Positions 12,682 through 32,012 of a DNA stretch of 35,833 bases are shown here, piece by piece. This stretch comes from Clostridia bacterium (GTDB lineage Bacteria > Bacillota > Clostridia > Christensenellales > UBA1242): the NCBI GenBank assembly GCA_045536095.1, contig JAZSMW010000121.1, positions 1-35,833 of the forward strand. The letters run 5' to 3'. The notes below the pieces were generated by a model that worked only from the letters and a program-made list of their open reading frames with translations, was not told the origin of the DNA and made no database searches. The stretch's first letter is position 1, and each line of letters begins with the position of its first letter. A program made the translations under genes and the position numbers.

Positions 12682-12797
12682 ATTTTCTCCAATTAAATTT
12701 TATCACATCTAAAACTATTTGTAAAATTTTTTATGTAATTTCTTTTTATTGTTAAAAATAATTATTTGCTTATTTTATACAAATTTTAATTTAACAC

Positions 12798-12826: not shown

Positions 12827-12834
12827 CTTTTTGT

Positions 12835-13098: not shown

Positions 13099-13112
13099 AA
13101 AAGGAGATTATT

Positions 13113-16100
13113 ATGTACAAAAAAGTTGGCGAAATGAACCTTGCTCAAACCGAAGAACAAGTTTTAAAGTTTTGGCAAGAAAACAACATTAAAAATCAAT
13201 GTTTAAGCCACAACAAAGGCAAAAAGATGTATTCTTTTTATGAGGGGCCTCCAACAGCAAATGGACAACCTCATGCTGGTCACGTTTTAACAAGAACGCT
13301 TAAAGACCTATTTAACCGTTTTCATTTAATGAAAGGCTACGAAGTTCCAAGAAAGGGCGGATGGGACACTCACGGGTTACCTGTTGAAATTTCTGTAGAA
13401 AAAGAAATAGGAATTTCGGGCAAACAACAAATTGAAGCTTATGGCGTAGAAAAATTTATTACCGAATGCAAAAAAGACGTTTGGAAATATGTTGACCTTT
13501 GGAAAACATTTTCAGACCGTGTTGGATACTTTGTTAACATGGATGACGACTGCTATGTTACTTATAAAGACGACTATATTGAGAGCGAATGGTGGAGTTT
13601 AAAAGAGTTAAACAATAAGGGTCTTTTATATAAAGGTTACAAGGTTTTACCATGTTGCCCAAGCTGTGGAACAGCACTTTCCTCTCACGAAGTTGCTCAA
13701 GGCTATAAAGAACGAAACGATTTAACAATTGTTGCTAAATTTAAAGCGGCAAATCATATAAACACTTACTTTTTAGCATGGACAACTACCCCATGGACAC
13801 TTCCTTCTAACGTTGCTCTTTGCGTTAACCCTGTTGAAACCTATGTTAAAATTGAATGTTTTGAAACTGGCGAAAACTATATTTTAGCCGAAGCATTAGT
13901 TTCTTCGTTTTTTAAAGATGAAGAATTTAAAATTGTAGAAAAATACACAGGTAAACAATTAGAATATCAAAAATATGAACCACTATTTAACTTTGCATCA
14001 AGCGATGTAACAGCAAAAGCATTTTTTGTAACATGCGATGCATATGTTACACTAACAGACGGAACTGGCATTGTTCACATTGCGCCAGCCTATGGTGCAG
14101 ACGATGCCAATGTTGGAATGAAATATAACTTGCCTTTTGTTGCAATGGCTGGTCAAGACGGATTGTTTACATCCGCATGTGAAAAATATGCTGGCAAAAA
14201 TGTGTTTGATGTTAACGAACAAGTTGCAGAAGACTTAAGAACTGATGGCAAAGTGTTTAAAAGTGCAAGACACAAACACGAATATCCACACTGCTGGAGA
14301 TGTAAATCACCTCTTATGTATTTTGCAAGAGACGGCTGGTTTGTTAAAACAACAGCAATTAAAGATGAATTAATAAAAAATAACCAAGAGGTTAATTGGC
14401 ACCCAGATTCTATAAAAGACGGACGTATGGGCAACTGGCTAGAAAATGTTATAGACTGGAACATTTCTAGAGATCGCTATTGGGGAACTCCTCTTCCTGT
14501 TTGGACTTGTGAATGTGGTCACTACCATGTTGTTGGATCTAAAGCCGAACTTAAGGAACTTGGAAATTTAAGTGAAGATATAGAACTACACAAACCATAT
14601 GTAGATGATGTAACACTAACCTGCCCACACTGTGGAAAACCAATGAAGCGTGAGCCATACGTTATAGACTGCTGGTACGATAGTGGTTCTATGCCTTTTG
14701 CTCAATTCCACTATCCATTTGAAAACAAAGAAGAATTTGAACGTAGATTCCCTGCCGACTTTATTTCGGAAGGAGTTGATCAATGCCGTGGTTGGTTTTA
14801 TACTCAACTTGTGCTAGGCACTGCTCTATTTGGCAAAGCTCCATACAAGCATGTTATTGTTAACGGGCTTGTTGTTGACGATAATGGGGTTAAACTTTCT
14901 AAGAGCCTTGGAAATTACCGTCCACCAATGGAAATAATAAACGCTGTTGGCGCAGATGCTGTTAGGTGGTCCTTCTACACAACAACCCAACCGTGGAATA
15001 ACCAACCAATGTCTGTTAAAAGCGCATCAGAATCTGTTAAAAATTATTTTGGTACACTTTGGAACACTTATGCATTTTTTGTTTTGTATGCAGAAATTGA
15101 CCAGTTTGACCCAAGCAAATATAACTTAAGCGATTGTAATCTTTCTATTATGGACAAATGGGTTTTATCTGAATTTAATACCCTTGTTGCCGAAGTTACA
15201 GAACTTGTAGAAACTTACCACTGCACAGAAGCAGCCCGCAAGGTTCAAGTTTTTGTTGAAAATCTTTCAAACTGGTATGTAAGAAGATGCCGCAAACGCT
15301 ATTGGGCTGGAGGTATGACTGAAGATAAAATAAGTGCTTATGTTACTCTTTGGGAAGTTCTTGTTGGGCTATGCAAACTAACTGCACCATTTACTCCGTT
15401 TGTAACCGAAAGCATGTATCAAAACCTAGTTACTCCATTTTTTGAAAACGCTCCAAAAAGCGTTCACCTTTGTGACTATCCAGAAGTAAATACATCGTTT
15501 ATAAATCAAAAATTAAGCACAGATATGGATTTATGTTACAAGTTTACTGAGCTTGGCAGAAGTGCAAGAAACCTAAGCAATATAAAAATCCGTCAACCAC
15601 TTGCAAAGCTATATATTACAGATGCAAATGGCAAATTTGATTTGGATGCTAATTTAATTACCCAAATAAAAGAAGAATTAAACGTTAAAGAAATAATCGA
15701 AAATGAAGACTTGTCAAAATTTGTTAAATATTCTATAAAACCTCAACTAAAAACTTTAGGGCCAAAATATGGTTCACTTCTTGGTGAAATAAGAAACTTT
15801 TTTGCAAATTGCGACGCAAACCAAGTGGTTGCTTGTGTTAGAAGCGGAAATACGTTTAAAACAACCTTAAACGGCACTTTGGTAGAGTTTGCCGAAAGTG
15901 ACATTTTAATTTCGGTTGAACAAACATCTGCTTACACTTCTGCAACCGAAGGGTCTCTTGCCGTTGTTCTAGACACAACCCTAACCCAAGAATTAATAGA
16001 GGAAGGCACTGTTCGTGAATTTGTTTCTAAAGTTCAAAACTTAAGAAAAACAAGTGGATATGAGGTAACAGACCGCATTAATATAAGCGTGGATGGAAAC

Positions 16101-16250: not shown

Positions 16251-16286
16251 AACGTCTTTTAAATAACACTTTTAAAAATATTAAAC

Positions 16287-16317
16287 AAAAGCCAAAACTC
16301 TGGCTTTTGTTTTTTCT
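16287..16317 (+). terminator. Rho-independent terminator of ileS
   Basis: The stem is AAAAGCCA (16287-16294) / TGGCTTTT (16301-16308), followed by GTTTTTTCTT. Confidence 0.75.
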
Positions 16318-16474
16318 TATGTAGTGGGAAATATCGTTTAAACGCAAATTTATTTGTGGGTTTAAAACGAGATTTCCGCTCGTACCAAAAATCACTGCTT
16401 TTGTGATAACAAAAGTGTTGAATTTATTCAAGTGGATAATTTTAAATCTATTTAAAGTTGCGGTGTTATTTTAT
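16311..16474 (-). repeat. Terminator-adjacent structured repeat, copy E (hybrid head, divergent tail), the only minus-strand copy
   Basis: Its reverse complement reads ATAAAATAACACCGC...CTTTTGTTATCACAAAAGCAGTGATTTTTGGTACGAGCGGAAATCTCG...CAAATAAATTTG...CGATATTTCCCACTACATAAGAAAAAA. The tail end abuts the ileS terminator. Confidence 0.85.
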
Positions 16475-16545: not shown

Positions 16546-18432
16546 CTATTTTGTATATTTAACATAACCAGCTTTGTCTTGAGTTGCGCTCTCGCTAAAC
16601 CCTTTACTTACCAACTGTGTGCTACTTAAACCATTTTTTAAGTATACGGTTGTGGTTGCAGAATTTGCTAACAAATAACCCATGTATGTGCTATTATTTG
16701 CAATTGTGCTACTATCTATTGTTACAGTTTGCAATCTTGAACAACCATCAAATGCATCGGAACCAATTCTTGTTGCAGATGCCCCAATTGTCAATGAAGT
16801 AATAGCAGAACATCCCCTAAATGCAAAGTCACCAATAACATCTGTTAATCCGGTTAAATTTACTTCACCACTTATGCCAGAGCACCCATTAAATGCCGCA
16901 AAACCTACTGAGTTTAGCTTTGACATGTTTACTGAGCCGGTTATTCCTGTGCACCCATTAAATGCATATGGCCCAACTGATGTTACATTTGATAAATTTA
17001 AACCTGTAATTTTTTTATAGTTTGTAAATTGTGCTCCCACACTTGTTACATCGCTAGGAACTGTTAATGTGCCATCAACCAATACATTGTTTATATATAA
17101 ATTTCGTGCGCTTTCAAAGATGTAAGGATTACTTGTTATTTCTATGCCAAACCACTCTTTTAAAGTTCCTGCATAATAAACATTTGATAAATTACAATCT
17201 TTAAATGCAGCAACACCTATGGATGTTACATTATCAAGCATTAAATCACCAAATATTTTTACACAGCCACTAAATGCATAAATACCAATGTTAGTTGCAT
17301 TTGATAAGTTTAAACTGCTTACAACTACATTTTTGCAATCTGCAAAGGCATACTGACCAATGCTTGTTACATTTTCTAAATCTAAAGAAATTAAAGTTTG
17401 ACATTCATTAAACGCATATTCACCAATTGTTGCTCCGCTAGCAAAGCTTAAGCTAGATATTAATTGATTGCAACCACTAAATGCGCGCTGACCAACAGTA
17501 GCTAAATTTTGCGTGTTTATAACATCAAATATTTGACTACCATTAAAAGCATATTCGCCAACCGACGTTGCACTAGTTAAATTTGCAAAACCTTTAAATG
17601 ATGTGCAACCATTAAAGGCATAATCCCCTATTGTTGTTACATTATTTAAATTAATTCCGTTAAGCGAAGTTTTACCTTTAAATGCATTGGAACTAATTGT
17701 TGTTGTGCTAGGCGTTAATGCAACATGTTTTATATTGCTAGAAAATGCATAAGCTGGCACCTGTGAAACAGCCTCTGGCAATTTAACTAAAGTATCTGAA
17801 ATTGTTGTGCCTGCAGTTTGCGATGAACCACTAGGAAGTGTTGTTAAACTAGAAATTTCTTCACTTGGTGCATACTCTTCCATATTTAAGTAGTAAGAAA
17901 AACTGCAATTTGTTGCAACATTTAAGTTTGTTCCTGGCCTTATACTAAAAAATACATCCATGCTAATTTCGTCTTGATCGGAAGAATCATCTGCTTTTTT
18001 TAAATATGAATATGATGTTAAGTTAACATTAAGTATGTTCCTTAATGTGTCGGAGGTTTTAATGTCTGACCCTACAGCTAACGTGTTTGTTGTTTTTTCT
18101 TCTTCACCCGAATAAAAATAAACACCCAAATTTTTGTTACTTAAATTTTTAATATGTATTGTTAGTTTTGTGCAAACACCAGACATTTTGCTGTTATGAG
18201 ATATTGCCAATGTTGGAATAGTTAAATCCACACCATATATGCTTTGCGTTGGCTCTAATATTTGTTCACCATTTATATAACCACTTATTTCTATATTACT
18301 ATTTGGTGGGGTTATATGTACCGTGCCACCCAAAGTTGAATTTGATGGTACAGAAGCATATACTCCAATACCAACTATACCCACACACAATATTAATAAT
18401 AAAACACTCAAAAATATTTTTTGTTTTTTCAT
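16546..18432 (-). CDS. Secreted/surface BspA-type leucine-rich repeat (LRR_5-like) protein (628 aa)
   Basis: The N-terminus is signal/anchor-like (MKKQKIFLSVLLLILCVGIVGIGVYA). A ~200 aa non-repeat region follows, then many ~23 aa units of the form NVTSIG.YAF.GC..L. Confidence 0.8.
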   Translation of the reverse strand: MKKQKIFLSVLLLILCVGIVGIGVYASVPSNSTLGGTVHITPPNSNIEISGYINGEQILEPTQSIYGVDLTIPTLAISHNSKMSGVCTKLTIHIKNLSNKNLGVYFYSGEEEKTTNTLAVGSDIKTSDTLRNILNVNLTSYSYLKKADDSSDQDEISMDVFFSIRPGTNLNVATNCSFSYYLNMEEYAPSEEISSLTTLPSGSSQTAGTTISDTLVKLPEAVSQVPAYAFSSNIKHVALTPSTTTISSNAFKGKTSLNGINLNNVTTIGDYAFNGCTSFKGFANLTSATSVGEYAFNGSQIFDVINTQNLATVGQRAFSGCNQLISSLSFASGATIGEYAFNECQTLISLDLENVTSIGQYAFADCKNVVVSSLNLSNATNIGIYAFSGCVKIFGDLMLDNVTSIGVAAFKDCNLSNVYYAGTLKEWFGIEITSNPYIFESARNLYINNVLVDGTLTVPSDVTSVGAQFTNYKKITGLNLSNVTSVGPYAFNGCTGITGSVNMSKLNSVGFAAFNGCSGISGEVNLTGLTDVIGDFAFRGCSAITSLTIGASATRIGSDAFDGCSRLQTVTIDSSTIANNSTYMGYLLANSATTTVYLKNGLSSTQLVSKGFSESATQDKAGYVKYTK

Positions 18433-18638: not shown

Positions 18639-18802
18639 ATAAAAAACCATCGCAATTTTAAATAAATTTAAAATTATGTATCTGTTTCACAAATACTCTT
18701 TTGCTATCCACAAAAGCGATGGCCCTTTGGTACGGGCGGAAATACTGCTAAAATCTTGCGAATAAATTCGCCGATTTACGATATTTCCTACTACATAAAA
18801 AA
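18639..18802 (+). repeat. Terminator-adjacent structured repeat, copy F (head type 2, divergent tail)
   Basis: The head is near-identical to copy B. The tail is GGAAATACTGCTAAAATCTTGCGAATAAATTCGCCGATTTACGATATTTCC, followed by CTACTACATAAAAAA. Confidence 0.9.
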
Positions 18803-18822
18803 CGGGCTCATAATTGAACCCG
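18797..18822 (-). terminator. Probable terminator of the holin-like gene / phage-like operon
   Basis: The stem is CGGGCTCA (18803-18810) / TGAACCCG (15-22) with one mismatch. The A-run at 18797-18802 is the U-tract on the minus strand. Confidence 0.5.
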
Positions 18823-18829: not shown

Positions 18830-19051
18830 TTATTCTTTTTTATCATTAGTGTTATCTTTACTTTGATCTTTGCCTTTTGGCTTCTGAACAATACCAAAAA
18901 CCACAAGCAAGCCACATATTGAAAGAATTATTTGTTCAACGCCTTTAACATTTATGCTTATGCCAAGGGTATCGTTTATTGCTATAAACAAAAGCCCAAC
19001 AGCTCCAGCAAGCGTTGTCCAAAACTTATAAGACTTAATTAGGTTTTTCAT
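18830..19051 (-). CDS. Small membrane protein, holin-like (73 aa)
   Basis: It has two hydrophobic segments and a charged Lys/Asp-rich C-terminus. It is the last gene of the phage-like operon. Confidence 0.5.
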   Translation of the reverse strand: MKNLIKSYKFWTTLAGAVGLLFIAINDTLGISINVKGVEQIILSICGLLVVFGIVQKPKGKDQSKDNTNDKKE

Positions 19052-19277
19052 CTTTTTTCCTTTTTGTTTGGTCGTTTTTTAACAAACATTTTTTAATTTT
19101 TGATACATCTTGTTTTATTTCGTCTACAGTATTTAAACTGCTCGATAAACAATCGATAATGTTTTGGTATTTTGTCTCTCTTTTTTTTGTATCCTTTAAA
19201 ACATAAACTAGTAGAGCCACAAACAAACATGCAAATATCCCATTGCTTAATGCAATGTTAAACACATCCGACCACAT
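19035..19277 (-). CDS. BhlA/UviB-family holin-like protein (80 aa)
   Basis: It has a single N-terminal TM segment, NGIFACLFVALLVYVLKDTKKRETKY, which resembles the BhlA signature (..FA.LF..LL.Y..K.sk.RE.K) as I remember it. A coiled C-terminus follows. Confidence 0.6.
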   Translation of the reverse strand: MWSDVFNIALSNGIFACLFVALLVYVLKDTKKRETKYQNIIDCLSSSLNTVDEIKQDVSKIKKCLLKNDQTKRKKDEKPN

Positions 19278-19280
19278 AAA

Positions 19281-20186
19281 CTATTTAAGTTGTAATTCCT
19301 CTAATAATTTATTATAGTTTTTGTTGCCCAATTGATTTATAAATGCACTGTTATTTTTAAGTTCGTTTATGGCATCTTCTTTACTCATTTGTGCAAAATA
19401 ATTTTTTGCAATTTCCAATTTTTCATTTTGTTTTAAAACATCAAATATGGCAGAGCCATACTTACCAATAAGTTCGGCTAAAGAAGTGGTTTTATCAAAG
19501 TTATCATCATTATTTTTTTTATCCCACTCTGCTTGAATTTGTGCTATTTGGTTGTTGTATTTAATAACATCTTGCTCGTTTTTATAAACTTCCTCATTTA
19601 TTCCGTCTATTTTTTCTTGCAATTTTACTGCATAGGCAATATCAAATGCATTTAGGGCATTTTGCTTTTGAGTTTGTAATAACGCCAAATCCCCGTTATA
19701 TGCATCTATTTTTTCATTAATTTGTTTTGCCTTTTCAGAAAGCTCGTTTAACATTTGCTGATCATGTTTTGCAAGCGTGTTAACAATTATACTAGAGCGA
19801 GCAAGACCTCTTTTTATTGCATCCTCTTTTGCCTCTTCTTTTACATTATCGTATGCACTTATTATGTTGTTTGTTTGATTTTTTAAATCTTCCTTTAAAT
19901 TGCTAATGCTTTTATTTGCTTGTTCTTGCTTTTCCAAATATTCATTATTTATAGAATCAATACCTGATGTTTTATACTCTTGCAAACTGTCTTTAGCCTT
20001 TTTTGATATTTCTTCGTCGGTTGGCTTTGAATAGTTCATTTTTTCCAAATTTAATTCATTTTCCCCTTTTGCAAGTGTATTATATTTGTTATCTATTGCA
20101 CCAAACTGGTCAAAAATCGCTTTTGTTTTTGCTGTTGTCGTTTTTAATTTGTTTGTTGTGTCTTCATCAAAAATATATTGATACAT
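19281..20186 (-). CDS. Phage-like coiled-coil structural protein (301 aa), positioned like a tail needle, plug or ejection protein
   Basis: The sequence has long heptad-like, K/E/Q/N-rich stretches. It sits after the putative tail hub gene. The call is by position only. Confidence 0.35.
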   Translation of the reverse strand: MYQYIFDEDTTNKLKTTTAKTKAIFDQFGAIDNKYNTLAKGENELNLEKMNYSKPTDEEISKKAKDSLQEYKTSGIDSINNEYLEKQEQANKSISNLKEDLKNQTNNIISAYDNVKEEAKEDAIKRGLARSSIIVNTLAKHDQQMLNELSEKAKQINEKIDAYNGDLALLQTQKQNALNAFDIAYAVKLQEKIDGINEEVYKNEQDVIKYNNQIAQIQAEWDKKNNDDNFDKTTSLAELIGKYGSAIFDVLKQNEKLEIAKNYFAQMSKEDAINELKNNSAFINQLGNKNYNKLLEELQLK

Positions 20187-20261
20187 TGTCTTCTCCTTTT
20201 AGGAATTTTTGTTTGTTGTACCTTTTAAAAATTAGTTTTAATAAATTATAATCTATAATCA

Positions 20262-21761
20262 TTAATTTGAAATCCCCACCATAATAACCGGGCAAGAAAT
20301 TTCGGTTTCTCCAGCTTCATCAACCATAAAACCCACTTCTATTTGCTCTCCACTTAAGTTTAATTTTATTCTTTGAGCTATTTCACTACCCTTTATAAAA
20401 AATTCTTTACACTGCTTATTTGTGTTTATTTTAATTTTGCAATTACCCTTAGTTTTTATTAAACACTCTTTAATGCGTTTTATTTTGCTTGGGTATCCCA
20501 TGCTACTTTTTGGGCTAATCCATTTTTTTGGCAATACTGTGCCAAAAACACAACCATCTGTTGTTAGTTCGCCAAGTTTGCCCGAATGTTCTCCGTTAAA
20601 GCAGGCAACAACTTTGCCAAACGATCCATCATCTAAAGCAAGCATAGACGCAATATCCACACCTCTGGTAATAGAAAGCTCATTTGTAGAAAGATCAATT
20701 TCTAAAAGTGCATTATTTATATAGCCGTTAGAATAATTTTCGCAACCTATTTTTTCGCCGTCATTAAAGTTTAATCTACAAGCCAATAAAAATTTATTGT
20801 TGAAATAAACAGCACATGCATTTTCATTGTTTACACCATCAAATAAACTATCTATCCCTAAATTTATTTTTTGAGTTGAGTACCCATCAAACACGTGCAC
20901 GCCATCTCTAGCAAGAAGTAAAACTTTATTGCCACAAAGCGTTGCTGTGTTGCCATATAGCTTAACGCTAGATGTAAACAATTGTGAAACGCTAAAATCT
21001 TGCTGATCTCCATATGCCGAAAGCCTTGTTACACCAAAATCCCTAAATACATAAACGTAATCGTTATATGAAATAACAGAACTTAGCCCGCCTCTCTCGT
21101 CTTGCATTTCTATAAAGCCACCTCCAGATAAGTCTTCTGTCCAATCTGTTGGATCTAAATTTGCCGAAAATGCTAAGCGGTTTCTTTCCCCGCCAACAAC
21201 TGCAAATAATCGTTCATAATGCAAACACATCGATTTTATATATGGGCTGTCTTCCACCTTTTGAATAGACTGATTTTGTGCATACTTCCACATACCGTCT
21301 GTTTCACTTGAAATTATTAATGTGTCGATAGAGTTTAATCTGTAATTTAGTGCGTTTGGAACACTAGTTAATGTTGTGTTTATATCTAATATTCCAACAA
21401 GTGGGCTATTAGATTTTAACAAACACGTTCTTACTTCTCCATTTTCGCAAAACATTATTAACTCATTATTGGCAGACTGTGTATCGGGATCAAAATATTT
21501 ATAGTGCCACAATTTTTTTACTGGGCTTGAAGGAGGAATAATTTCTCTTTGCCCACCACTTTTGTTTGGCAAACATAAGTTTTTAAAACCATAACCATTG
21601 GTTAAGCTTCCTTTTTTTACATTAAAATTGTAAGATATTTTTGCTTTTTTATATGGAAGCAATGCCTCATCCACTTCGGTATCCATTGAAGCTTCAAAAT
21701 TTGTAAAGTTAATTTGTGCATTTGTAACTTGTTTTTTAGGAGTTACTCTTGGATAAATCAT
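20262..21761 (-). CDS. Phage-like tail hub/nozzle candidate (499 aa, beta-rich)
   Basis: Size and position after the adaptor-like gene parallel P22 gp10 / T7 gp12. The sequence is beta-strand-rich with repeated G/D/Y/F turns. No Walker A motif is present, so it is not a terminase. Confidence 0.4.
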   Translation of the reverse strand: MIYPRVTPKKQVTNAQINFTNFEASMDTEVDEALLPYKKAKISYNFNVKKGSLTNGYGFKNLCLPNKSGGQREIIPPSSPVKKLWHYKYFDPDTQSANNELIMFCENGEVRTCLLKSNSPLVGILDINTTLTSVPNALNYRLNSIDTLIISSETDGMWKYAQNQSIQKVEDSPYIKSMCLHYERLFAVVGGERNRLAFSANLDPTDWTEDLSGGGFIEMQDERGGLSSVISYNDYVYVFRDFGVTRLSAYGDQQDFSVSQLFTSSVKLYGNTATLCGNKVLLLARDGVHVFDGYSTQKINLGIDSLFDGVNNENACAVYFNNKFLLACRLNFNDGEKIGCENYSNGYINNALLEIDLSTNELSITRGVDIASMLALDDGSFGKVVACFNGEHSGKLGELTTDGCVFGTVLPKKWISPKSSMGYPSKIKRIKECLIKTKGNCKIKINTNKQCKEFFIKGSEIAQRIKLNLSGEQIEVGFMVDEAGETEISCPVIMVGISN

Positions 21762-22331
21762 TTAAAACCATCCTCTTTTTTTAAGTTTAAGTTCTCCCTT
21801 TTTTCTTGCATTTACAAATAGCGCATTTTTAAACCTGTTTTCCCATATTGTAGCATCTTCATAAAGCATCTCTAAAAAACAAAACTCGCTTGCAACACCA
21901 TAAGCAAGTATGCGTGCAGAAAGTTTACCACCAAATGTTTCTGCTTCGCTTTCGAGTGTTATTTTTGTTGGATGAGCCTTATATGTTACTACAACATTCG
22001 TTGCAAAACAAATCACCTTATTGTTAATTAATTTATACTTTAACTCTCTTCCAAATTTAGATTTTATACTTACAATTTCATGAATGTTTGGATCTATTTC
22101 AAAAACTTCTATTTGACCATTTTGCAGGGTCATTTCTTTTTGCCTTAAAAGCGGAATATATTCAGTTGCAATTTCTTCTGTAACTAAATTAATACAGTTT
22201 ACCATTTTGCCTATTTCCAAATTTTCTTGGTTGGTTAAACTTGTTCCACCCTCTTCAAATAAATTACTATTTAATATTTCTTCTTTTCCTAAATACACAC
22301 AAACATTTTTAATTATTTCTTTTGCTTTCAA
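21762..22331 (-). CDS. Phage-like head-tail adaptor candidate (189 aa)
   Basis: Its position downstream of the capsid gene and its size are comparable to P22 gp4 / T7 gp11. It overlaps the upstream ORF by 23 nt, which suggests translational coupling. Confidence 0.35.
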   Translation of the reverse strand: MKAKEIIKNVCVYLGKEEILNSNLFEEGGTSLTNQENLEIGKMVNCINLVTEEIATEYIPLLRQKEMTLQNGQIEVFEIDPNIHEIVSIKSKFGRELKYKLINNKVICFATNVVVTYKAHPTKITLESEAETFGGKLSARILAYGVASEFCFLEMLYEDATIWENRFKNALFVNARKKGELKLKKRGWF

Positions 22332-22641
22332 TATTTTTCTCCATTTGCTCTAATAAATTTTTTTGCTCTTTTTTTAAAAGGAGAGCATTTTCGTTTTCAA
22401 TTTCTTGTAAATATTTTTCTCGATTTTGAATTTCGCTTTTTTGAATATGTATCAACATTCGCTCATCTATTTGGTTAAACGGGAATGTTAAAGAATACTC
22501 ACAGGGTTTTAAACTGTTTTCTTTTATTTTTAACACATACTTTTTAGTTTTTATGTTATAAAAAACCCTATAGTGCTTATTCCATGCTTTAATTCTTTTT
22601 ATTATTCCTAGAGCATCGCTCTTTATTTCAAATTGTTCCAT
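22309..22641 (-). CDS. Phage-like hypothetical protein (110 aa)
   Basis: ORF track. It lies between the capsid and adaptor-like genes and has a coiled C-terminus. Confidence 0.45.
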   Translation of the reverse strand: MEQFEIKSDALGIIKRIKAWNKHYRVFYNIKTKKYVLKIKENSLKPCEYSLTFPFNQIDERMLIHIQKSEIQNREKYLQEIENENALLLKKEQKNLLEQMEKNIESKRNN

Positions 22642-22767
22642 TTACCCTCCTTTTTTAGAGCATTTTTATTGGTTTGAATTTTCAAAACATACCAAAAAAG
22701 TATGCGGTTTTATTCTAGCCAAATAACCATTGTTTTCTTTTGTTAAACAATTGAACAAAAAAATTAA

Positions 22768-23964
22768 TTAAGCGTTTACAACTGTTGTAAATGGATTAGT
22801 TACAGTGCTAGAAATACCAGTAATTTTTGCCTGTCCATTAGGTTTGTCGCAAATTAAATCTGCGTATTTAACTAATGTTGCACTGTAAGTTGGGAATCCC
22901 ATATTTTGACGAATAACTCTTCCGTCTTCACCTTCTAACCATTTCCAGTCGCATAATTGATGAAGTGTAAAGTCATCTGTATTTAATAAATACATTGTGT
23001 CATCAGCAACAAATCTATCTGCCACAAGAGGAATTCCATTATAAGAAATTGCCTTGTAACCACCGTTTAGTTCTTGAATATCAATATTTCTTCTATATGC
23101 ACCTAAATATTCTTGATAAGCTCGTCTTACTGCGCTTGAACACGCAATGTAATTAATGTTAGAGCCTGAAACTTCATCTAAAAAGTCAATTGCGCTTTGA
23201 ATTAATCCATCGCTAATTTCTCCAGCTTCCGTTTTAATATATGGTGAAAGCCAAGGAAATTCAGATCTTTTTAAACCATAAAGAGTTTCAGAATTAGAAA
23301 ATAATTTACCAAGCCCGGTTATTTCAAAATCTTTAGAGTTTTGAACATAAATTTTGTCACCTACTGCAAGTTCTATTTCAGTGTCTAAATAAACCGCTTT
23401 GTTTACTCTGTCAACATATTTAATTCTTACACCACTTTTTGCTTCTACTTTTGCATCTTGAGTATAAACATCAATAACCATACCCTCTATTAAATTTTTA
23501 ACAGAATCACATGTTATTGCTTTTGTTTCACTATCAAATGCACTAACAGTTGCAAGTAGCCCTGTGCCATCACCATAAAGCATACGACCAAAGTTAAATG
23601 AAGATGCCTTAATTAACCCCTCCATTTCATCGTTTAAAAGATTTACAAATGCCCCTGCATTGTTTTCTGATGCTCTTATTGCTTTGTCAGAAAGTTCAAT
23701 TTTGCCATATAAATTTTTAAGCTCTGAAATAAATTGAACATAGTTGTTTCCAGCGGCCTTTGGCAAAGCATCTGTTTCTGCCCCAGCACCAATACCACCA
23801 TTAATTCCATATGGAGCAAGTTTTCTTACTTCTTTGCCCCAAACATCTTTTGTAGATTGTTTAATTTTTCCAAGAAGTGGGTTTGCATTAATATTTAATT
23901 GGTTAGAAACCACTCCAAGGTAAACTGTTTTTAATGCGCTTTCTGCGCTTTGTAAAGTAACCAT
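22768..23964 (-). CDS. Major capsid protein candidate (HK97-fold expected, 398 aa)
   Basis: It lies immediately downstream of an acidic helical scaffold-like gene and the portal gene. The size is typical and the sequence is rich in G/A/N/T. Confidence 0.6.
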   Translation of the reverse strand: MVTLQSAESALKTVYLGVVSNQLNINANPLLGKIKQSTKDVWGKEVRKLAPYGINGGIGAGAETDALPKAAGNNYVQFISELKNLYGKIELSDKAIRASENNAGAFVNLLNDEMEGLIKASSFNFGRMLYGDGTGLLATVSAFDSETKAITCDSVKNLIEGMVIDVYTQDAKVEAKSGVRIKYVDRVNKAVYLDTEIELAVGDKIYVQNSKDFEITGLGKLFSNSETLYGLKRSEFPWLSPYIKTEAGEISDGLIQSAIDFLDEVSGSNINYIACSSAVRRAYQEYLGAYRRNIDIQELNGGYKAISYNGIPLVADRFVADDTMYLLNTDDFTLHQLCDWKWLEGEDGRVIRQNMGFPTYSATLVKYADLICDKPNGQAKITGISSTVTNPFTTVVNA

Positions 23965-23968
23965 TTTT

Positions 23969-24640
23969 TTATCCTTTTAAATTAAATAGTTTCTCCACCA
24001 TTTGTTTTGCCTCCATCATGGTTGTTGGCTCTTTTTTTTGAATTCCTGCAACCACTCCAGTTTTTGCAATAACTGGTGGAGTTTTTGTGTTTTGTAAATT
24101 TTTAAAGTATTCATCTAATACTTGCTTTTTAACTTGCTCTTGACTCAAAATTTTTTCATTTATGAAGTTTTGATCATTCGCCAACGTTTGCGGGTTCTTG
24201 TAATTATCTTTCATTACTCTAGCCCAAGCAAGCTCTAAGGCATGCGGAGATGATTGTAAACTTTTGTCTTTTAAAATTTCGTTTGCAATATCCCCAGAAT
24301 ACTCTTTAGCCTCAGAATTTTGCTTTAAAAAAGTAGATACATTTTGCTTCCAATCGTCACTTTCGTAAACTGGAAATGTCTCTACTTTTTCACTTTTACC
24401 TTGCTCTTGCTTTTGCCCCTCGAGAAGGCTACTCACTTCGCTTAGTTTTTGACACTTTTTAGTAAACTCTGCCTGCAAATTGTTATAGGCCATAAGCAAA
24501 CTTTGAGCGTCTTTAAATTTTCCTAGGGAGCCATCATTCTCTTGCGTTAAAGCAGTACCTTCTTCCTCTTCTTTAACAATTTCACTTTGTACATTAACCT
24601 CAAGATCAAGCGGTTGTTCCCCGTTTATTTTTTCTTCCAT
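23969..24640 (-). CDS. Capsid scaffolding protein candidate (223 aa)
   Basis: It is acidic, E/K/Q-rich and looks helical. It sits between the portal and capsid genes with 3-4 nt gaps. Confidence 0.55.
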   Translation of the reverse strand: MEEKINGEQPLDLEVNVQSEIVKEEEEGTALTQENDGSLGKFKDAQSLLMAYNNLQAEFTKKCQKLSEVSSLLEGQKQEQGKSEKVETFPVYESDDWKQNVSTFLKQNSEAKEYSGDIANEILKDKSLQSSPHALELAWARVMKDNYKNPQTLANDQNFINEKILSQEQVKKQVLDEYFKNLQNTKTPPVIAKTGVVAGIQKKEPTTMMEAKQMVEKLFNLKG

Positions 24641-24643
24641 ATT

Positions 24644-26524
24644 TTATATTCCCTTTTTATTATCATTATTTGTTAAACCATTTTGCATTGCATCAAACTC
24701 TTTGTGTTTTCTTATATGTTCTAAAATGTTTTGTTCAATTTTTTCACTGGTTTTCTTTTCGTACTCACCACTTAGCATAAATGCAATATGCTCATCTATG
24801 TGTAATTTATGATTATCTATTTCTTTAACTTGTGGCATTTGCCCCTCAATAAATTCTGCATTTTCTGCCGAAGCCTTTTTTTGATGTAATTCATTTATGT
24901 CTTGTGCGCTTTCCCACACACCAAACCCTAAAAGTTCTAATGCTTTAATTCTCATACGATTAGACAATTTTCCATTTTCATCTTGAAGTAGTCCTGCCTT
25001 TAATAAATCAAAAACCATGCTACGACGCTGAGCCAAAGACTCATTTAATTCTGTATCCGTTTCAAAGTTTACCTCATCGCTAGAGATATCCGATGATGAG
25101 AAATACATAACCTCTAATTCACCATGATCTCCAACAATTTTTAAAAGCCTTGGCACAGTGGCAAATTGTTTATAAAGCCTTAAAATATGTTTTGCCATCT
25201 GCTTTATTGCAAACTTTAATTGATCACTTGTTACAGAAATTCTAGTTTCATCTTGCTCAATTAAAAGTTGAAGAGCAACACCGCTCATATTTGCATAAGT
25301 TGAAGTGTTATTAAGGATATCCGACACTCCAGATATTGTTTTAAATTCATCTAAAAGTCGCTGTTCTTCTAGGGTAAAATCTGCTGGCACGTTTGTGTTA
25401 GCCATAAAGTTTGGAGCATTTGCGCCTTGCCTATATACTAAAATTTTCCCTGGAGACAATCCCTCCTCTTCTAAATTATCAACATCCACAGAGCCATCTT
25501 CAACGGTTAAAACACCCATAGATAGCCTATTCAAAAATTCGTGTTTCCTATTCTTTACTGCATTATAGGCTCGTTGAATAGGTATAACTCTTTCTATAAT
25601 TGAAGTGCCCCAAAAACATCCCGTTTGTTCAATACAAACCTGTTGAATAAATGGAAAAGTTCTTTCGCCGTCTGCACCATTTTTATATGGTAATTCTCCA
25701 ACATATAGTAACTCATCACCAGCAACAATAATTAACCTGCCATTTGGATATTCAATGCTCGGCTTTTCATATTTTTCTATAACTATTGCATAGTTACATT
25801 TTTTTGTATTGATTATTTTTGTAGCCTGCGAATTATATCCAAGCCCACCAATTCCCGAATTTGAATTGTCTAATGAGAACACATTTATGTCCTCACCTTC
25901 TACTTTTTTACCCCAAATTGCCTCAATATCATTAACATGATAAGCCTTTGCATGTATTATACTTTTTGAGTCTTCTAACGTACTTGTTGTACTTTCTGGA
26001 AATATTTCAAACGGTGTGCATACGGCAATGTTCACATCACCCATTTTTAAACTTTTTCCAGTGTCATCTTTTGCATAGGTTATGCCCTTATCGTTATCCC
26101 AAAATATTTTGTAAAAAACTGTTCCTGTAACTTCGCTCCATTTTGTTGCTTCAGATATTAATTTAGACATTTCCTCCTTCTTGTATATTGCGTTAACAAT
26201 TTTTTTAGAAAGTTTAGCGGTTTTTACATCCGATTCATCATTAGACACGGGAACAATTGTCATTGTTGGCCTAATTGTATGCAATTTTGCTAACCTTGCC
26301 TCAACAATTGACGCAATATGGTTAAAAACTTCTCGTTGTTGCCAAAAATATTCTTTGTCAAACTCTTCTATTTCGTGATTATAGCCAATGCTACAATACT
26401 GATTACCCATTAAAAAGTTCATGTTCAACTGCCATTGGGCATCAAACGCCTTACGTTCTTGTTGCCTCTTTTTAAAATCATTTTTAATATTTTCAACTAG
26501 TAACTGTTCTTCTTTTTTCTTCAT
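24644..26524 (-). CDS. Portal protein candidate (626 aa)
   Basis: Size and position upstream of scaffold and capsid fit a portal. The N-terminal W..N..F..GNQY-type motif is common in podovirus portals as I remember it. No Walker A motif is present. Confidence 0.6.
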   Translation of the reverse strand: MKKKEEQLLVENIKNDFKKRQQERKAFDAQWQLNMNFLMGNQYCSIGYNHEIEEFDKEYFWQQREVFNHIASIVEARLAKLHTIRPTMTIVPVSNDESDVKTAKLSKKIVNAIYKKEEMSKLISEATKWSEVTGTVFYKIFWDNDKGITYAKDDTGKSLKMGDVNIAVCTPFEIFPESTTSTLEDSKSIIHAKAYHVNDIEAIWGKKVEGEDINVFSLDNSNSGIGGLGYNSQATKIINTKKCNYAIVIEKYEKPSIEYPNGRLIIVAGDELLYVGELPYKNGADGERTFPFIQQVCIEQTGCFWGTSIIERVIPIQRAYNAVKNRKHEFLNRLSMGVLTVEDGSVDVDNLEEEGLSPGKILVYRQGANAPNFMANTNVPADFTLEEQRLLDEFKTISGVSDILNNTSTYANMSGVALQLLIEQDETRISVTSDQLKFAIKQMAKHILRLYKQFATVPRLLKIVGDHGELEVMYFSSSDISSDEVNFETDTELNESLAQRRSMVFDLLKAGLLQDENGKLSNRMRIKALELLGFGVWESAQDINELHQKKASAENAEFIEGQMPQVKEIDNHKLHIDEHIAFMLSGEYEKKTSEKIEQNILEHIRKHKEFDAMQNGLTNNDNKKGI

Positions 26525-26528
26525 TTAT

Positions 26529-26738
26529 TTACCTCAATTTTTTTTGTTTTTTAAAGGGTGCATCAACGCTTTTAGGCGTTGTAAACTTTGCGTATGTTTC
26601 ATATATTTTTTTTAAACAATCTTCACACAAACACATCTTTTTCTTGCTATCGCTTAAAAATTCCAAAGAAAATTCTGCCAAGTTTTTACACCCAGAAAAA
26701 TCGCATTTAATTTTGTTAGATATTTTTTGTAAAATCAA
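26529..26738 (-). CDS. Small Cys-rich (zinc-ribbon-like) protein (69 aa)
   Basis: The Cys pattern is C-x4-C ... C-x-C-x2-C. It has a TTG start with an AAGGTAGGG RBS. It occupies the slot where a large terminase would be expected. Confidence 0.45.
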   Translation of the reverse strand: MILQKISNKIKCDFSGCKNLAEFSLEFLSDSKKKMCLCEDCLKKIYETYAKFTTPKSVDAPFKKQKKLR

Positions 26739-26754
26739 TTTTTGCCCTACCTTT

Positions 26755-27096
26755 TTAATTATTTTGTTCTTCTTGCGGTTTATCTTCTAAAACCCTTTGC
26801 AACATATTTACATTTGTTAATTTTTGATACTCCTTAAAAAGCCTTATCATTTCTGCATCTAATTCTTCATCTGTCATATTTTCAAAAGTTCCTGATTCAT
26901 TAAAAAACTCCAATAACATTTTAGAAGCAGTCATGTCTCCAGGAACATATTTTTTTGTAATCTTTTTTTTAGTTAAACATTCTTTGCCATCTTCGTAAGA
27001 ATATTCCTCAACAATTTCGTCAGCATAATATCCAACCGCCTTTTTTAAAAGAGCCTCTTTAATTTTTTTTAATTTACTTTTTTCTATTTCACCCAA
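26755..27096 (-). CDS. Small phage protein, possible small terminase subunit or DNA-binding protein (113 aa)
   Basis: I trimmed the ORF to the TTG at 27096, 6 nt after an AAGGAGG RBS. The motif A.GYYADE..EEY..EDGKE...KK.TKKYVPGD..ASK.LLE resembles Firmicute phage TerS-like proteins as I remember them. Confidence 0.4.
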   Translation of the reverse strand: MGEIEKSKLKKIKEALLKKAVGYYADEIVEEYSYEDGKECLTKKKITKKYVPGDMTASKMLLEFFNESGTFENMTDEELDAEMIRLFKEYQKLTNVNMLQRVLEDKPQEEQNN

Positions 27097-27251
27097 CACA
27101 ATCCTCCTTTTTTTTAGGTTGTATTTTATAACCAAATACAAATTTTAAGCATTTTTTTTGCTTTCAAAAAAATTGTACTATGTTCATTTTAAAAACAAAA
27201 TACCCCCATGCCAATTTTTTTTATTTTTTATAATTTTTATATAAATCACTA

Positions 27252-27307: not shown

Positions 27308-27625
27308 ATGTTCAGCAAAAGGCTTTCTACTTGTGACATACAAGAATTTTTAACCACATATTTACATAAAAAAGTTAAAAAAATAAATTCCAATTTAAAC
27401 ATGTCCGATTTTGATGACCCAAACAAAACTTTTTGTGCAACCGCAAAACTTAAAACAGCCGACACTATTTTTGGCAAAAATATTCGTATTTTATTTAATG
27501 ATACAACATTTGTTATTTATGAAAATGATATAAAGCTAACATACAATCTTTCTTGGAAAAATTTTATGATAAAAAAATTTGGTGCCGACTATAAAGCTAA
27601 ATATAACTTAGATAGGCAAAAATAA
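27308..27625 (+). CDS. Small paralog 1 of 4 (105 aa), unknown family
   Basis: The shared motifs are L..(D/E)I..FL at the N-terminus and W..F...KFG..Y at the C-terminus. The stop overlaps the next start (TAATG). Confidence 0.65.
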   Translation: MFSKRLSTCDIQEFLTTYLHKKVKKINSNLNMSDFDDPNKTFCATAKLKTADTIFGKNIRILFNDTTFVIYENDIKLTYNLSWKNFMIKKFGADYKAKYNLDRQK

Positions 27626-27924
27626 TGACAGAACTTAAATTTGCAAATCGTCTTACCAAATTAGAAATATTAGAGTTTTTAAACAGTGTTAACATATATC
27701 CAAAAAAAATAAAAGTTGATATCAAACTAAATGGATGTTTGGGCTCTATTGGCTTAAATATAACTTATTTCATAACACCAAATCACGCCCTATATGCAAC
27801 ATGCAACGACTACTCTTTTATAGCCTCAACAAAATGCTTAAACTTATCAAGCCAATGGGTTAAATTTTTAGAAAAAAAGTTTGGGAAAATATACATAAAT
27901 AGTACTAATACACAATCAAAATAA
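27625..27924 (+). CDS. Small paralog 2 of 4 (99 aa)
   Basis: It carries LTKLEILEFL ... WVKFLEKKFGKIY. Confidence 0.65.
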   Translation: MTELKFANRLTKLEILEFLNSVNIYPKKIKVDIKLNGCLGSIGLNITYFITPNHALYATCNDYSFIASTKCLNLSSQWVKFLEKKFGKIYINSTNTQSK

Positions 27925-27934
27925 TGGAGTAATT

Positions 27935-28282
27935 ATGACAAACAAAACAAACTACGCAAAACTTTTAAAAAAAGAAGATATTATTAGGTTTTTAACCGAC
28001 AGTGCAATTTCTACACATATTGCCTCTAATGATTTATCAAACATAAAATTATTAGGCCTTTTTTCTCTTACAAATGAACTTATAGAAATTCAAGTAACCA
28101 ATAAAAATTCTCATGGCCAAGAAGTTGTTATTGCTCGTTTTTCAGATTTTATGTTTGAAACTGCAAACGGAGAATTTAAGTTTAATGAAGAGTGGCGTAG
28201 GTTTTTAAAAAGGCTGTTTGGTCAACCATATGTAGATGCCTATAAAAAATGGATTGTAGAATCCCTTTCTGAAATTAAATAA
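27935..28282 (+). CDS. Small paralog 3 of 4 (115 aa)
   Basis: It carries LKKEDIIRFL ... WRRFLKRLFGQPY. A GGAG RBS is present. Confidence 0.65.
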   Translation: MTNKTNYAKLLKKEDIIRFLTDSAISTHIASNDLSNIKLLGLFSLTNELIEIQVTNKNSHGQEVVIARFSDFMFETANGEFKFNEEWRRFLKRLFGQPYVDAYKKWIVESLSEIK

Positions 28283-28298
28283 TAAGGAGGACCCAACC

Positions 28299-28652
28299 AT
28301 GCAATTTGTAAATAAATTAACTTATAATGACTTTTATAATTTTTTTAAAAGAAAGCATATAACAATTAAAAAGCTAACAATTACTTCTAAAAAACCAACT
28401 TGTTTTTTAGATAAAGACAGCATTGGTTTTAGCATTTTAACCGATCAAAACAAAACAATAACTTTTACCGTTTCCGATTATAGTCTTATATCCAATTGTT
28501 ATTATTTTGACGAATGCTGGCAAATATTTTTATACGAAAAATTTGGGGAGGTTTACGCAATCGCCCAAAAAGAGCATTTTAAAAACTTAACAAAAAACAA
28601 AATTTATATTAAAAGAGCTCAAGCATATTTACCAACAACATTAATAAAATAA
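28299..28652 (+). CDS. Small paralog 4 of 4 (117 aa)
   Basis: It carries LTYNDFYNFF ... WQIFLYEKFGEVY. An AAGGAGG RBS is present. Confidence 0.65.
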   Translation: MQFVNKLTYNDFYNFFKRKHITIKKLTITSKKPTCFLDKDSIGFSILTDQNKTITFTVSDYSLISNCYYFDECWQIFLYEKFGEVYAIAQKEHFKNLTKNKIYIKRAQAYLPTTLIK

Positions 28653-28834: not shown

Positions 28835-29596
28835 TTATCGTATAGAATCATTATTTGTTTTTGCGACATCATCTCTTGTAAATTTTTTGTTTAATGTTTT
28901 ATATTCCTCCAATTTTGGAAAATGACTAAAAAGATATCTTGCCAAATCTAACGAATAATCTGTTCTATATGGTGTTTGTATTTGTTTTACATTGGTACAC
29001 CCTTCAAACACAGTCCAGTTCTCTAAAGATAATTCTCTTGGTATAAAAATTTCTTCTAAGCTAGTGCATCTTGCAAATGCATTAGATTGGAATTGGCAAA
29101 ACCCACCCAATGAAGGTGTAAAATAAATGTTTTTCAAGCTTGTGCAATCTGCAAATGCATTCATGCCCAAAACTTTTAAATCACTTGGCAAGCTAACTCC
29201 TGTTAAACTTGTGCATTTAGAAAATGCGCTATCACCGATTTTAGTCACCTTGTCTGGTATCTTTATGCTTTCTAAGCGTTCACAGCCACTAAAACACTTA
29301 AGCCCTATTTCTTTTAAACTTCTTGGCAACTCTACTTTTTTTAAACTTGTACAATCTTTAAAAGCACCAATTCCTATTGATGTTACACCTTCTGACACAA
29401 CAACCTCTTCAAGATTTGAAAGATAGCTAAAACCACTAATTGCCTCCGCACCTGGCAATAGTTCTACCTTAAAAACCGCAGGACTAAGTTCATTGTCTGC
29501 ACAAATTTCGTCAAAATCTTTGCTTGTTATCGAAGCTTTTTTTACAGTACCATTAATGTTTATATAAAGCACTAAAACTTCATCTAAATTGCTCAT
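28835..29596 (-). CDS. Cytoplasmic BspA-type LRR protein, short paralog (253 aa)
   Basis: There is no signal peptide. The N-terminal module is LDEVLVLYININGTVKKASITSKDFDEI.ADNEL. About six AF..C.SL..V.LP units follow. The C-terminal module is LARYLFSHFPKLEEYKT.NKKFTRDDV. Confidence 0.75.
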   Translation of the reverse strand: MSNLDEVLVLYININGTVKKASITSKDFDEICADNELSPAVFKVELLPGAEAISGFSYLSNLEEVVVSEGVTSIGIGAFKDCTSLKKVELPRSLKEIGLKCFSGCERLESIKIPDKVTKIGDSAFSKCTSLTGVSLPSDLKVLGMNAFADCTSLKNIYFTPSLGGFCQFQSNAFARCTSLEEIFIPRELSLENWTVFEGCTNVKQIQTPYRTDYSLDLARYLFSHFPKLEEYKTLNKKFTRDDVAKTNNDSIR

Positions 29597-30890: not shown

Positions 30891-32012
30891 CTATTTATTG
30901 TGATTGTTTGTTCTGTTTGTTATATCTTCTTTTGTAAATGTTCCGTTTTCTGTTACAACACTTTCTAAACCTGCCAAATTGGTAAACAACCTCTTTGCCA
31001 ACGCTTCATCTGCTACAGGAGTTATCACCGTTTTTACTGATTTTAATTTAATAAATGAAAGCCAATTAACATCTCGTATGCCGTCTTGGATTTCCAAACA
31101 TGTTACATTGGAACAATTATCAAACGCGTTTATGGCTATTTGTGTTGCCCCATTTTGAATTGTTACTTTTTGTAAACCAGAACAATTTGCAAATGCTTTA
31201 GAACATATTGTTTTTACGCTTTTTGGTATTGCTATGCTTGTTAACCCAGTACAGCTAGAAAATGCAAAAACATCTATTTTGGTAACACTCTCTGGAATAG
31301 ACACACTAGTTAAACCTGAGCACTTACTAAATGCAGACATTTCAATTTGTTTTACACTATTTGGAATTTCTATATGACTCAAACCAGTACATCCAGCAAA
31401 TGTATGCTTAGGTATAACCGCTAATTTTTTAGAAAGTTCTACACTTGTTAAACAGATGCACTCTGCAAATACAGCATTCCCCATATTTAATACGCTGTCT
31501 GGAATGACTACACTTCTTAAATTCGTGCATCCAGCAAATGTTTTATGAGGCAAATAAGTTATTTGGCTTGGAATTTCTACACTTTTTAATCTTTTACAAT
31601 TTAGAAAGGCGCTCTCCCCAATTTTTATTACTGAATTAGGAATTTGAATACCAGACAATCTTTCACATCCACAAAAAGCTTCATTTCCTATTTCATATAA
31701 ACCGTCTGGAATGTCTACTATCTCTAATTTGGAACAACCATGAAACGCCCTAGGTGATATTTTTCTTAATTTTTTTGGTAGAAAAACTTCTCTCAAGTTA
31801 GCAAAAGAACTAAACTCAAATACCCTTAAATTTTCTAAATCTCTATCATTGTTTATTTTAGTAAAAGAATCTAAAACCTCAATTTTATAAACGCAATCTG
31901 CAAGTTCTTTGTTTGCACGAATCTCGGCAAGGGATTCTTCTGTTACAACAACTTTCTTTAATTCTCCATTAATATTTAGATGCACCTCAGCAATTTCATG
32001 TATATTATCCAT
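30891..32012 (-). CDS. Cytoplasmic BspA-type LRR protein, paralog (373 aa)
   Basis: There is no signal peptide. The N-terminal module is MDNIHEIAEVHLNINGELKKVVVTEESLAEIRANKELADCVYKIEVL. About ten LRR_5-like units follow, then a conserved C-terminal module. Confidence 0.8.
   Translation of the reverse strand: MDNIHEIAEVHLNINGELKKVVVTEESLAEIRANKELADCVYKIEVLDSFTKINNDRDLENLRVFEFSSFANLREVFLPKKLRKISPRAFHGCSKLEIVDIPDGLYEIGNEAFCGCERLSGIQIPNSVIKIGESAFLNCKRLKSVEIPSQITYLPHKTFAGCTNLRSVVIPDSVLNMGNAVFAECICLTSVELSKKLAVIPKHTFAGCTGLSHIEIPNSVKQIEMSAFSKCSGLTSVSIPESVTKIDVFAFSSCTGLTSIAIPKSVKTICSKAFANCSGLQKVTIQNGATQIAINAFDNCSNVTCLEIQDGIRDVNWLSFIKLKSVKTVITPVADEALAKRLFTNLAGLESVVTENGTFTKEDITNRTNNHNK

Follow-up and report, generated by a model that had tools for sequence, protein, structure and literature searches.

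A podovirus-type head and tail-hub operon with a separate large terminase locus, probably part of a domesticated particle system in gut Clostridia

What kind of element is a chromosomal block of phage head, tail-hub and lysis genes that lacks a gene for the large terminase subunit (TerL)? This question is raised by contig JAZSMW010000121.1 of a Clostridia bacterium (assembly GCA_045536095.1), whose whole length of 35,833 nucleotides was analysed and is referred to as the window in the following. The 35.8-kb window represents a piece of a low-GC bacterial chromosome (about 31% GC) with housekeeping genes such as ileS, rplU-prp-rpmA, tex, dinB, pyk, khpA and rpsP. At positions 18830-27096 it carries eleven tightly packed open reading frames (ORFs), all on the minus strand and separated by about -23 to +126 nt, which encode, in this order, a small terminase subunit (TerS)-like protein, a zinc-ribbon protein, the portal, a scaffold-like protein, the major capsid protein (MCP), a protein of 110 aa, a putative adaptor, the nozzle, a DUF7934 protein, a BhlA-family protein and a holin. 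A first-pass annotation, which was made from the letters without database searches, had described the same eleven ORFs as a module without large terminase, and had offered three explanations, namely a satellite or capsid-forming island with a helper, a domesticated GTA-like particle (GTA, gene transfer agent) of podoviral ancestry, or a prophage remnant caught soon after deletion.

Our analysis leads us to the view that the operon probably provides the head, tail-hub and lysis genes of a domesticated podovirus-derived, GTA-like particle system of uncultured gut Clostridia, for which TerL is supplied in trans; among the three earlier explanations, the GTA-like one is the best supported. This view is carried by the identities of the genes, a split architecture, conservation across species and purifying selection. 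Three properties of GTAs were found here: structural genes which reside in the chromosome without integration, excision or replication functions according to profile scans, vertical inheritance with purifying selection across the host clade, and a distribution of the genes over more than one locus, with TerL and a sigma-like gene about 18 kb from the operon.

A separate chromosomal locus for the large terminase

No match to TerL was obtained anywhere in the window by tblastn with related TerLs as queries. A divergent TerL among the eleven ORFs was considered and rejected, since their one Walker A pattern, AKDDTGKS within the portal, is a chance match and since the 499-aa protein has the fold of a tail nozzle (see below). 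The gene was located on a contig of the same species, scaffold_701 of ERZ28593407 (ENA), which aligns with window positions 35790-35048 at 99.5% and with positions 35059-31087 at 97.4%, the two blocks being separated by a strain-specific insertion of 3.85 kb. Past the right end of the window, scaffold_701 continues with ffh, hemN, lepA and SSB, followed, next to groESL, by an intact TerL gene (Terminase_6N) on the strand of the operon. Its stop codon lies about 9.2 kb beyond the window end, which puts it about 17.9 kb upstream of the operon. The puzzle of the "missing" terminase is thereby resolved: TerL is encoded about 18 kb away, and it is absent from the window both because the contig ends before it and because the architecture is truly split. 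The earlier statement that the large terminase is lacking is correct for the 35.8-kb contig and incorrect for the element.

The same arrangement was observed in other data. In one Logan sample, the TerL locus of scaffold_701 was found as an identical contig, alongside a module contig with 99.2% identity to the window. In GCA_054298215.1, which represents the closest other species (MCP 93% identical, rpsP-khpA-pyk flank shared), TerL is located about 18 kb upstream of the operon on one contig, with SSB, lepA, hemN, hisS, ffh and rpsP in between; among the 120 TerL homologues listed, the closest to this TerL is P0171 on a 19,128-nt NCBI contig, with 88% identity, which might stem from the window's own assembly. 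A shorter distance of 2.5-4 kb was found in 16 of 80 loci, where a single large gene for a surface protein separates the operon from a TerL that is located upstream and shares its strand. The TerL family equals the MCP family in its breadth of occurrence, and its Walker A motif is intact (GNRSGKT, shown in the sequence of relative L016).

Every chromosomal TerL locus that we examined contains a gene for a sigma-70 region-4-like protein of 187-226 aa ahead of TerL. This protein matched sigma families, RinA and the Xpf-type "positive control sigma-like factor" (NF005385), in each case below threshold. Between the sigma-like gene and TerL lies a divergent ORF of 228-350 aa, whose frame opens with a lysine-rich stretch and which showed weak SH3_3 and surface-protein matches only; it possibly encodes a secreted or membrane protein. 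The trio of sigma-like gene, divergent ORF and TerL adjoins groES-groEL in three lineages, and in one of these the groESL-linked TerL was found without a head operon within 10 kb on either side.

These findings bear on the proposal of a phage satellite or capsid-forming island, i.e. an element which encodes its head proteins itself and depends on a helper for TerL and tail parts, as a window with head genes and without TerL, fibres and endolysin might suggest. We regard this proposal as highly improbable, since the cognate TerL is chromosomal, is found in the same species on the strand of the operon, and is homologous to the TerL proteins of the nearest isolated phages, Shocker and Jasmine (1e-44). 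Neither an integrase nor a replication gene was detected in the module or its flanks in Pfam, PHROG and NCBIfam scans, no tRNA targets and no att-like flanking repeats were found around the operon, and a regulatory module is likewise missing there. The fixed syntenic location of the operon within lineages, its co-divergence with the host and its occurrence in at least 556 species-representative stretches, all described in the next section, also speak against a satellite.

More divergent relatives in IMG/VR show a contiguous order, in which TerL is followed by a small protein, the zinc-ribbon protein, portal, scaffold, MCP, the 110-aa protein, the 189-aa protein and the nozzle. The TerS-like gene is located directly downstream of TerL in contiguous relatives. 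The first-pass annotation had expected TerL between the TerS-like gene and the portal, which proved to be wrong, as TerL stands upstream of both small genes in the contiguous relatives as well as in the nearest phages. One of the relatives, the 30-kb IMG/VR contig L123 (positions 1-13645), encodes an MCP with 61% identity and the same portal-to-nozzle block after TerL, and upstream of TerL it carries genes for a tail protein, a Hoc-like decoration protein and an amidase endolysin. It is a probable true podophage relative and a candidate model of the ancestral phage. Several stages of domestication are on record, namely a true phage relative, a contiguous TerL and operon, a TerL one surface-protein gene away, and a TerL at a distance of 18 kb.

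Conservation and selection across the host clade

Searches with the MCP (E<=1e-5, 90% clustering) yielded more than 5,700 homologues, many of which are 70-93% identical and lie on contigs of up to 405 kb. In a scan with one genome per GTDB species, at least 556 stretches confirmed by tblastn carry the module, and their record titles name Christensenella, Christensenellales, Catabacter, and unclassified Clostridia and Eubacteriales metagenome-assembled genomes (MAGs). All 80 species-representative loci that were fetched display an identical order of 10-11 genes over about 8.3 kb, with MCP identities down to 68%; counts of individual genes given below refer to 84 loci. The neighbours of the operon are housekeeping genes in all cases, such as Tex, PGI, def/fmt, ABC transporters and pyk. 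They vary with the lineage, with tex and PGI opposite def and fmt as one example and an ABC transporter as another, and within lineages the site is fixed and syntenic. Taken with the contiguous and phage-like relatives described above, the conserved order speaks for an old podoviral system that has been domesticated and split.

The ratio of nonsynonymous to synonymous substitution rates (dN/dS), determined roughly against the closest other species, ranged from 0.065 to 0.28 for all eleven genes, with 0.065 for both portal and MCP, 0.21 for the 110-aa protein, 0.22 for the scaffold-like protein and 0.28 for the DUF7934 protein; the flanking genes pyk, khpA and rpsP gave 0.04-0.11. Between the window and MAG-R039, the module proteins are 46-83% identical, compared to 88% for Tex, 66% for the amidohydrolase and 56% for RluB. 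Moreover, in 18 species (153 pairs) that share a flanking ABC ATPase, portal, MCP and nozzle vary in pairwise identity in step with this host protein (Spearman 0.84-0.90). Neutral evolution, a patchy presence in close relatives and frequent pseudogenes were each tested for, and none of them was found.

The host-like divergence, the dN/dS ratios and the co-divergence together exclude a recent remnant and argue for a long vertical inheritance under selection. A prophage remnant that has lost its function through a recent deletion and has not yet begun to decay might be suspected on the grounds that a true phage relative (L123) has the same head and tail-hub block and that the element is devoid of most phage functions. 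However, all 80 species examined have one and the same reduced gene set in the same order, all ORFs are intact and under purifying selection (dN/dS 0.07-0.28), the operon is present at chromosomal sites in hundreds of species, and the split TerL locus beside groESL is itself conserved across lineages, which leaves a freshly deleted prophage with a next to negligible probability. Loci of this kind, 38 of which stand in IMG/VR, behave like host genes, and annotation that labels them as viral contigs or incomplete prophages calls for caution.

Operon products and neighbouring features

The features of the operon are compiled in Table 1. The guesses of the first-pass annotation for portal, capsid, BhlA and holin were right according to profile matches, and that for the nozzle according to structure.

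Table 1 Features of the head and tail-hub operon in the window, in the order of transcription.
Feature	Coordinates	Strand	Basis
Sigma-70-like promoter match, TTGGCA-17-TAAAAT	27186..27214	-	10/12 consensus matches; consensus match only
TerS-like protein, 113 aa, first operon gene	26755..27096	-	phrog_309 TerS 6e-5 for the window protein
Zinc-ribbon protein, 69 aa, CX4C...CX2C	26529..26738	-	no family match (Pfam, PHROG, NCBIfam)
Portal, P22 type, 626 aa	24644..26524	-	PF16510 3.9e-25; PF23899 3e-9; phrog_156 9e-46
Scaffold-like protein (putative), 223 aa	23969..24640	-	position and size only; no family match
Major capsid protein, podovirus family, 398 aa	22768..23964	-	NF033394 capsid_maj_Podo 4.4e-82, above cutoff; phrog_14242 1.7e-54
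Conserved protein, 110 aa	22309..22641	-	no family match; same position in 82/84 loci
Putative head-to-tail adaptor, 189 aa	21762..22331	-	position and size only
Tail nozzle/hub, beta-propeller type, 499 aa	20262..21761	-	AlphaFold2 model and Foldseek
DUF7934 helical protein, 301 aa	19281..20186	-	PF25588 2.3e-39
BhlA-family holin-like protein, 80 aa	19035..19277	-	PF10960 3.5e-18; phrog_2429 7e-16
Small holin, 73 aa, last operon gene	18830..19051	-	phrog_297 1.6e-6; phrog_962 5e-6; PF04531 8.8e-4, below cutoff
Intrinsic-terminator-like hairpin and T-run	18803..18822	-	8-bp stem, 5 GC pairs, then TTTTTT

The operon is bracketed by a promoter-like site upstream of its first gene, the position of which is partly kept in close relatives, and by a terminator-like hairpin starting 8 nt past the stop codon of the holin gene, and it appears to form a single transcription unit. 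The gene of the TerS-like protein has a TTG start at 27096 behind the ribosome-binding site AAGGAGGA, and gene callers applied to same-species contigs indicate a length of 113-114 aa. The TerS profile phrog_309 was matched by 21 of 23 family members, with a best value of 1.4e-8, and the match is confined to about 50 residues (profile positions 197-242 of 319); a comparison of the family profile with PDB sequences gave no meaningful match. The Cys-rich 69-aa ORF noted in the first-pass annotation proved to have four invariant cysteines (C12, C17, C38, C41) in 68 homologues, and the gene is present in 67 of 84 loci. The portal shares 23% identity with the portals of Shocker and Jasmine across 97% of its length. 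Between portal and MCP, the scaffold-like gene occupies the same place as Jasmine gp15 and Shocker gp22, and it is conserved in 79 of 84 loci.

In every locus examined, the gene of the 189-aa protein is located directly upstream of the nozzle gene. Its product matched no entry in PDB, PHROG (20 family members) or Pfam, hhalign comparisons with Shocker gp32 and Jasmine gp23 were not significant, and a single-sequence AlphaFold2 model had a predicted local distance difference test score (pLDDT) of 34. For the 499-aa protein, a model based on an alignment of 40 sequences reached a pLDDT of 87.3 and a predicted template modelling score (pTM) of 0.88. Foldseek searches with this model against PDB retrieved the Pa223 tail (E 6e-24, TM 0.76), VP1 (TM 0.74), P22 gp10 (TM 0.60-0.67) and also T7 gp12, and BFVD matches include proteins named "P22 Gp10, DNA-stabilising". 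On the basis of its predicted structure, the protein is a podovirus nozzle or hub with the beta-propeller fold of gp10/gp12. It shares with P22 gp10, T7 gp12, Pa223 and VP1 both the fold and the place after a small adaptor-sized gene, whereas the sequence identity amounts to only 9-13%. Neither a P22 gp26-like needle nor a gp9-like spike was identified. The DUF7934 gene is an optional component of the operon, being present in 40 of 84 loci; its profile gave no meaningful match to PDB sequences, and the family is not mentioned in the literature searched. The BhlA gene was found in 72 of 84 loci.

Several features lie next to the operon or the TerL locus. A dispersed intergenic repeat of about 170 nt with the core GGTACGGGCGGAAATACTG...CGATATTTCCTACTACATAAAAAA occurs in six copies in the window (1875-2037, ~7650-7819, 9001-9180, 10335-10501, 16272-16474 on the reverse strand, and ~18650-18802), mostly just past the 3' ends of genes, and one copy follows right after the operon terminator. 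The repeat is also present in the relatives L088, L130 and L134; RNAalifold predicted 33 pairs, 8 of them with compensatory changes, and no Rfam match was obtained. Divergent from the operon, four tandem, weakly paralogous ORFs of 99-117 aa (27308-28652, plus strand) share a C-terminal W..F...KFG..Y motif and have no family match. They were rejected as components of the system, since homologues were found only in the closest relative (L088, two copies) and on same-species contigs.

Surface proteins of the leucine-rich repeat (LRR) type, described as BspA LRR_5, PARCEL repeat and LRR adhesin-like, are encoded at 16546-18432, 28835-29596, 30891-32012 and 32043-33335 of the window, and relatives encode LRR-type proteins as well (L127 11794-14277; L019 3646-6012; L134 10409-14050). 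In different lineages, variable proteins of this type recur beside both the operon and TerL, and the 3.85-kb insertion of scaffold_701, located between khpA and pyk, encodes a 1213-aa LRR protein that is missing from the window. These proteins may be receptor or adsorption parts of the particle system, or they may simply be abundant in the genomes. Two further minus-strand ORFs lie among ribosomal-protein genes. The product of the first (7814-8872) has 352 aa, ends in a tail rich in lysine and matched no family, and the second (10528-12681) encodes a 717-aa DUF4132 protein; both appear to be unrelated to the phage-like operon.

Function of the particle and comparison with known systems

With portal, scaffold-like protein, capsid protein, adaptor-sized protein and nozzle, the gene set should suffice to build and close a DNA-filled podovirus head, while genes for replication, integration or the control of lysogeny are missing. 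To encode the particle, no less than 8.3 kb is needed for the operon, to which TerL adds 1.4 kb and other parts would add more. We infer that the two loci are co-regulated and that the particle packages host DNA, is released and delivers its content. In such a scheme, the sigma-like activator would induce the two loci in part of the cell population, procapsids would assemble on the portal, and TerL together with the truncated TerS-like protein would fill the heads by a headful mechanism with short pieces of cellular DNA. The portal would then be closed by adaptor and nozzle, and the particles would be released by holin-triggered lysis, for which a cell-wall hydrolase may be encoded elsewhere.

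A number of points weigh against this scheme. Neither the window nor the 10 kb on each side of the two loci in the window's lineage yielded a gene for a tail fibre, a receptor-binding protein or an endolysin, which puts adsorption and even release of the particle in question; the corresponding claim of the first-pass annotation on fibres and endolysin holds for the window. In both upstream regions, k-mer counts and alignments revealed no promoter motif common to operon and TerL; a GGGGTATTG...TATATT-like block upstream of the operon is conserved only among the closest relatives of the window. The position of TerL was read from a same-species contig and not from the window's own assembly, and the labels of adaptor (189 aa) and scaffold (223 aa) are putative assignments by position and size. 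Furthermore, dS was near saturation (0.6-2.1), which makes the dN/dS ratios rough, and the co-divergence was measured on adjacent genes, for which a joint transfer with the operon is conceivable. Finally, the operon is known here from its genes.

In the light of these points, a rival explanation has to be weighed, namely a domesticated particle that serves some purpose besides the transfer of genes. Such a particle could act in PBSX-like killing, in DNA release or in a lysis-linked role, either filled with DNA or empty, and would not deliver DNA. The lack of a fibre or receptor-binding gene near either locus in the window's lineage would fit this explanation, as would the annotation of the BhlA family as bacteriocin production or immunity (phrog_2429), and the data on conservation and selection are equally compatible with any function that benefits the host. 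PBSX itself packages DNA, reportedly without injecting it (PMC12946183). On the other hand, portal, TerL, TerS-like protein and nozzle have been kept under purifying selection, which points to DNA packaging and an exit channel, and known killing systems rely on contractile or long tails, which are absent here. In addition, the relatives L100 and L101 encode a tail protein (phrog_5302) directly after the nozzle, and adsorption parts may lie elsewhere, as in the second operon of FpGTA (see below). We therefore judge a function without transfer to be unlikely, though of appreciable weight, and continue with the GTA-like reading.

Faecal virus-like particles were reported to show GTA-like packaging of host fragments of about 6.3 kb (QANA01) and about 4.1 kb (HGM11616) from Christensenellaceae, without a gene cluster being assigned (PMC12946183, Supplementary Data 1), and the literature searched contains no report of a phage-like particle locus for this family. 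The operon and the groESL-linked TerL/RinA/Xpf-like locus might together represent an independently domesticated podovirus-type GTA that has come down by vertical descent in much of Christensenellales (at least about 550 species) and that is the basis of the 4-6 kb packaging in Christensenellaceae, a proposal which we put forward tentatively and with somewhat less than even confidence. The two loci offer a strong candidate, concrete and testable, for this packaging in hundreds of species of a prominent gut-associated clade.

Among known systems, satellites possess att sites and genes for an integrase, for replication and for helper sensing, and they move between genomes. Capsid-forming phage-inducible chromosomal islands (PICIs) resemble the window element in being compact blocks with their own capsid and portal and without a full virion, but the hallmarks of satellites and PICIs, namely integrase, att sites, replication and dependence on a helper for TerL, do not apply to it. 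The nearest isolated phages are Jasmine and Adat (Jasminevirus) and the Microbacterium phage Shocker, with identities of 25-28% for MCP and 23% for the portal. Jasmine and Shocker share with the lineage the succession of TerL, two small genes, portal, scaffold-like gene and MCP. The similarity of these phages is remote, and they differ from the window element as complete actinobacterial podophages of 45-47 kb with tail spikes, endolysin and replication genes.

PBSX of Bacillus subtilis is myovirus-like, has a contractile tail and a repressor, and forms one continuous block of about 28 kb. The likeness to the window element lies in a defective phage-like element of a Gram-positive host under the sigma-like Xpf, to whose family profile (NF005385) the TerL-adjacent protein shows its weak match; unlike PBSX, the window element consists of an 8.3-kb podoviral operon and a separate TerL locus. 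Classical GTAs (RcGTA and relatives, BaGTA, VSH-1, Dd1, VTA) are likewise vertically inherited, domesticated phage clusters, which are distributed over several loci, released by lysis and devoid of self-propagation functions (background in part from PMC12946183). They are mostly siphovirus-like and proteobacterial, spirochaetal or archaeal, in contrast to the podovirus-like element of Bacillota described here. Outside Alphaproteobacteria, GTA-like elements are few, with one podovirus-like example described (FpGTA, 2026).

FpGTA of Faecalibacterium prausnitzii consists of two operons at a distance of 125 kb, one for the head (10.5 kb) and one for tail and lysis (5.5 kb), and forms 40-nm particles carrying 8.4-8.9 kb of host DNA (Nat Commun 2026, PMC12946183); in the literature searched, it is mentioned nowhere beyond this source. 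Both systems belong to gut Clostridia, combine podovirus-type head with short-tail genes, lack replication and integration genes, are near-ubiquitous in their host clade, occupy more than one chromosomal locus and include holin-based lysis genes, and the TerS of FpGTA is reportedly without an obvious DNA-binding domain. The differences concern families, gene order and the state of evidence. The MCP of FpGTA is assigned to the N4-gp56 family (RCH50849.1, Supplementary Data 2 of PMC12946183), whereas the window MCP gave no N4-gp56 match and only NF033394 in NCBIfam at E<=0.01. Between portal and MCP, FpGTA has a Prp-like gene, in contrast to the 223-aa scaffold-like protein of the window operon, which has no Prp match. 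In FpGTA, TerS, TerL and portal are contiguous and fibre, receptor-binding and lysis genes lie in a second operon, an equivalent of which was not found at the loci examined, a survey that did not cover whole genomes; unlike FpGTA, the window element has TerL and the activator split off and keeps the holins with the head genes. While particles and packaged DNA have been shown for FpGTA, the window element, also when set beside the classical GTAs, is known from its genes alone. FpGTA is the closest described analogue and, on paper, resembles the window element in its mode of action, but by the features tested, namely family names and gene order, the window element is not a member of the FpGTA family.

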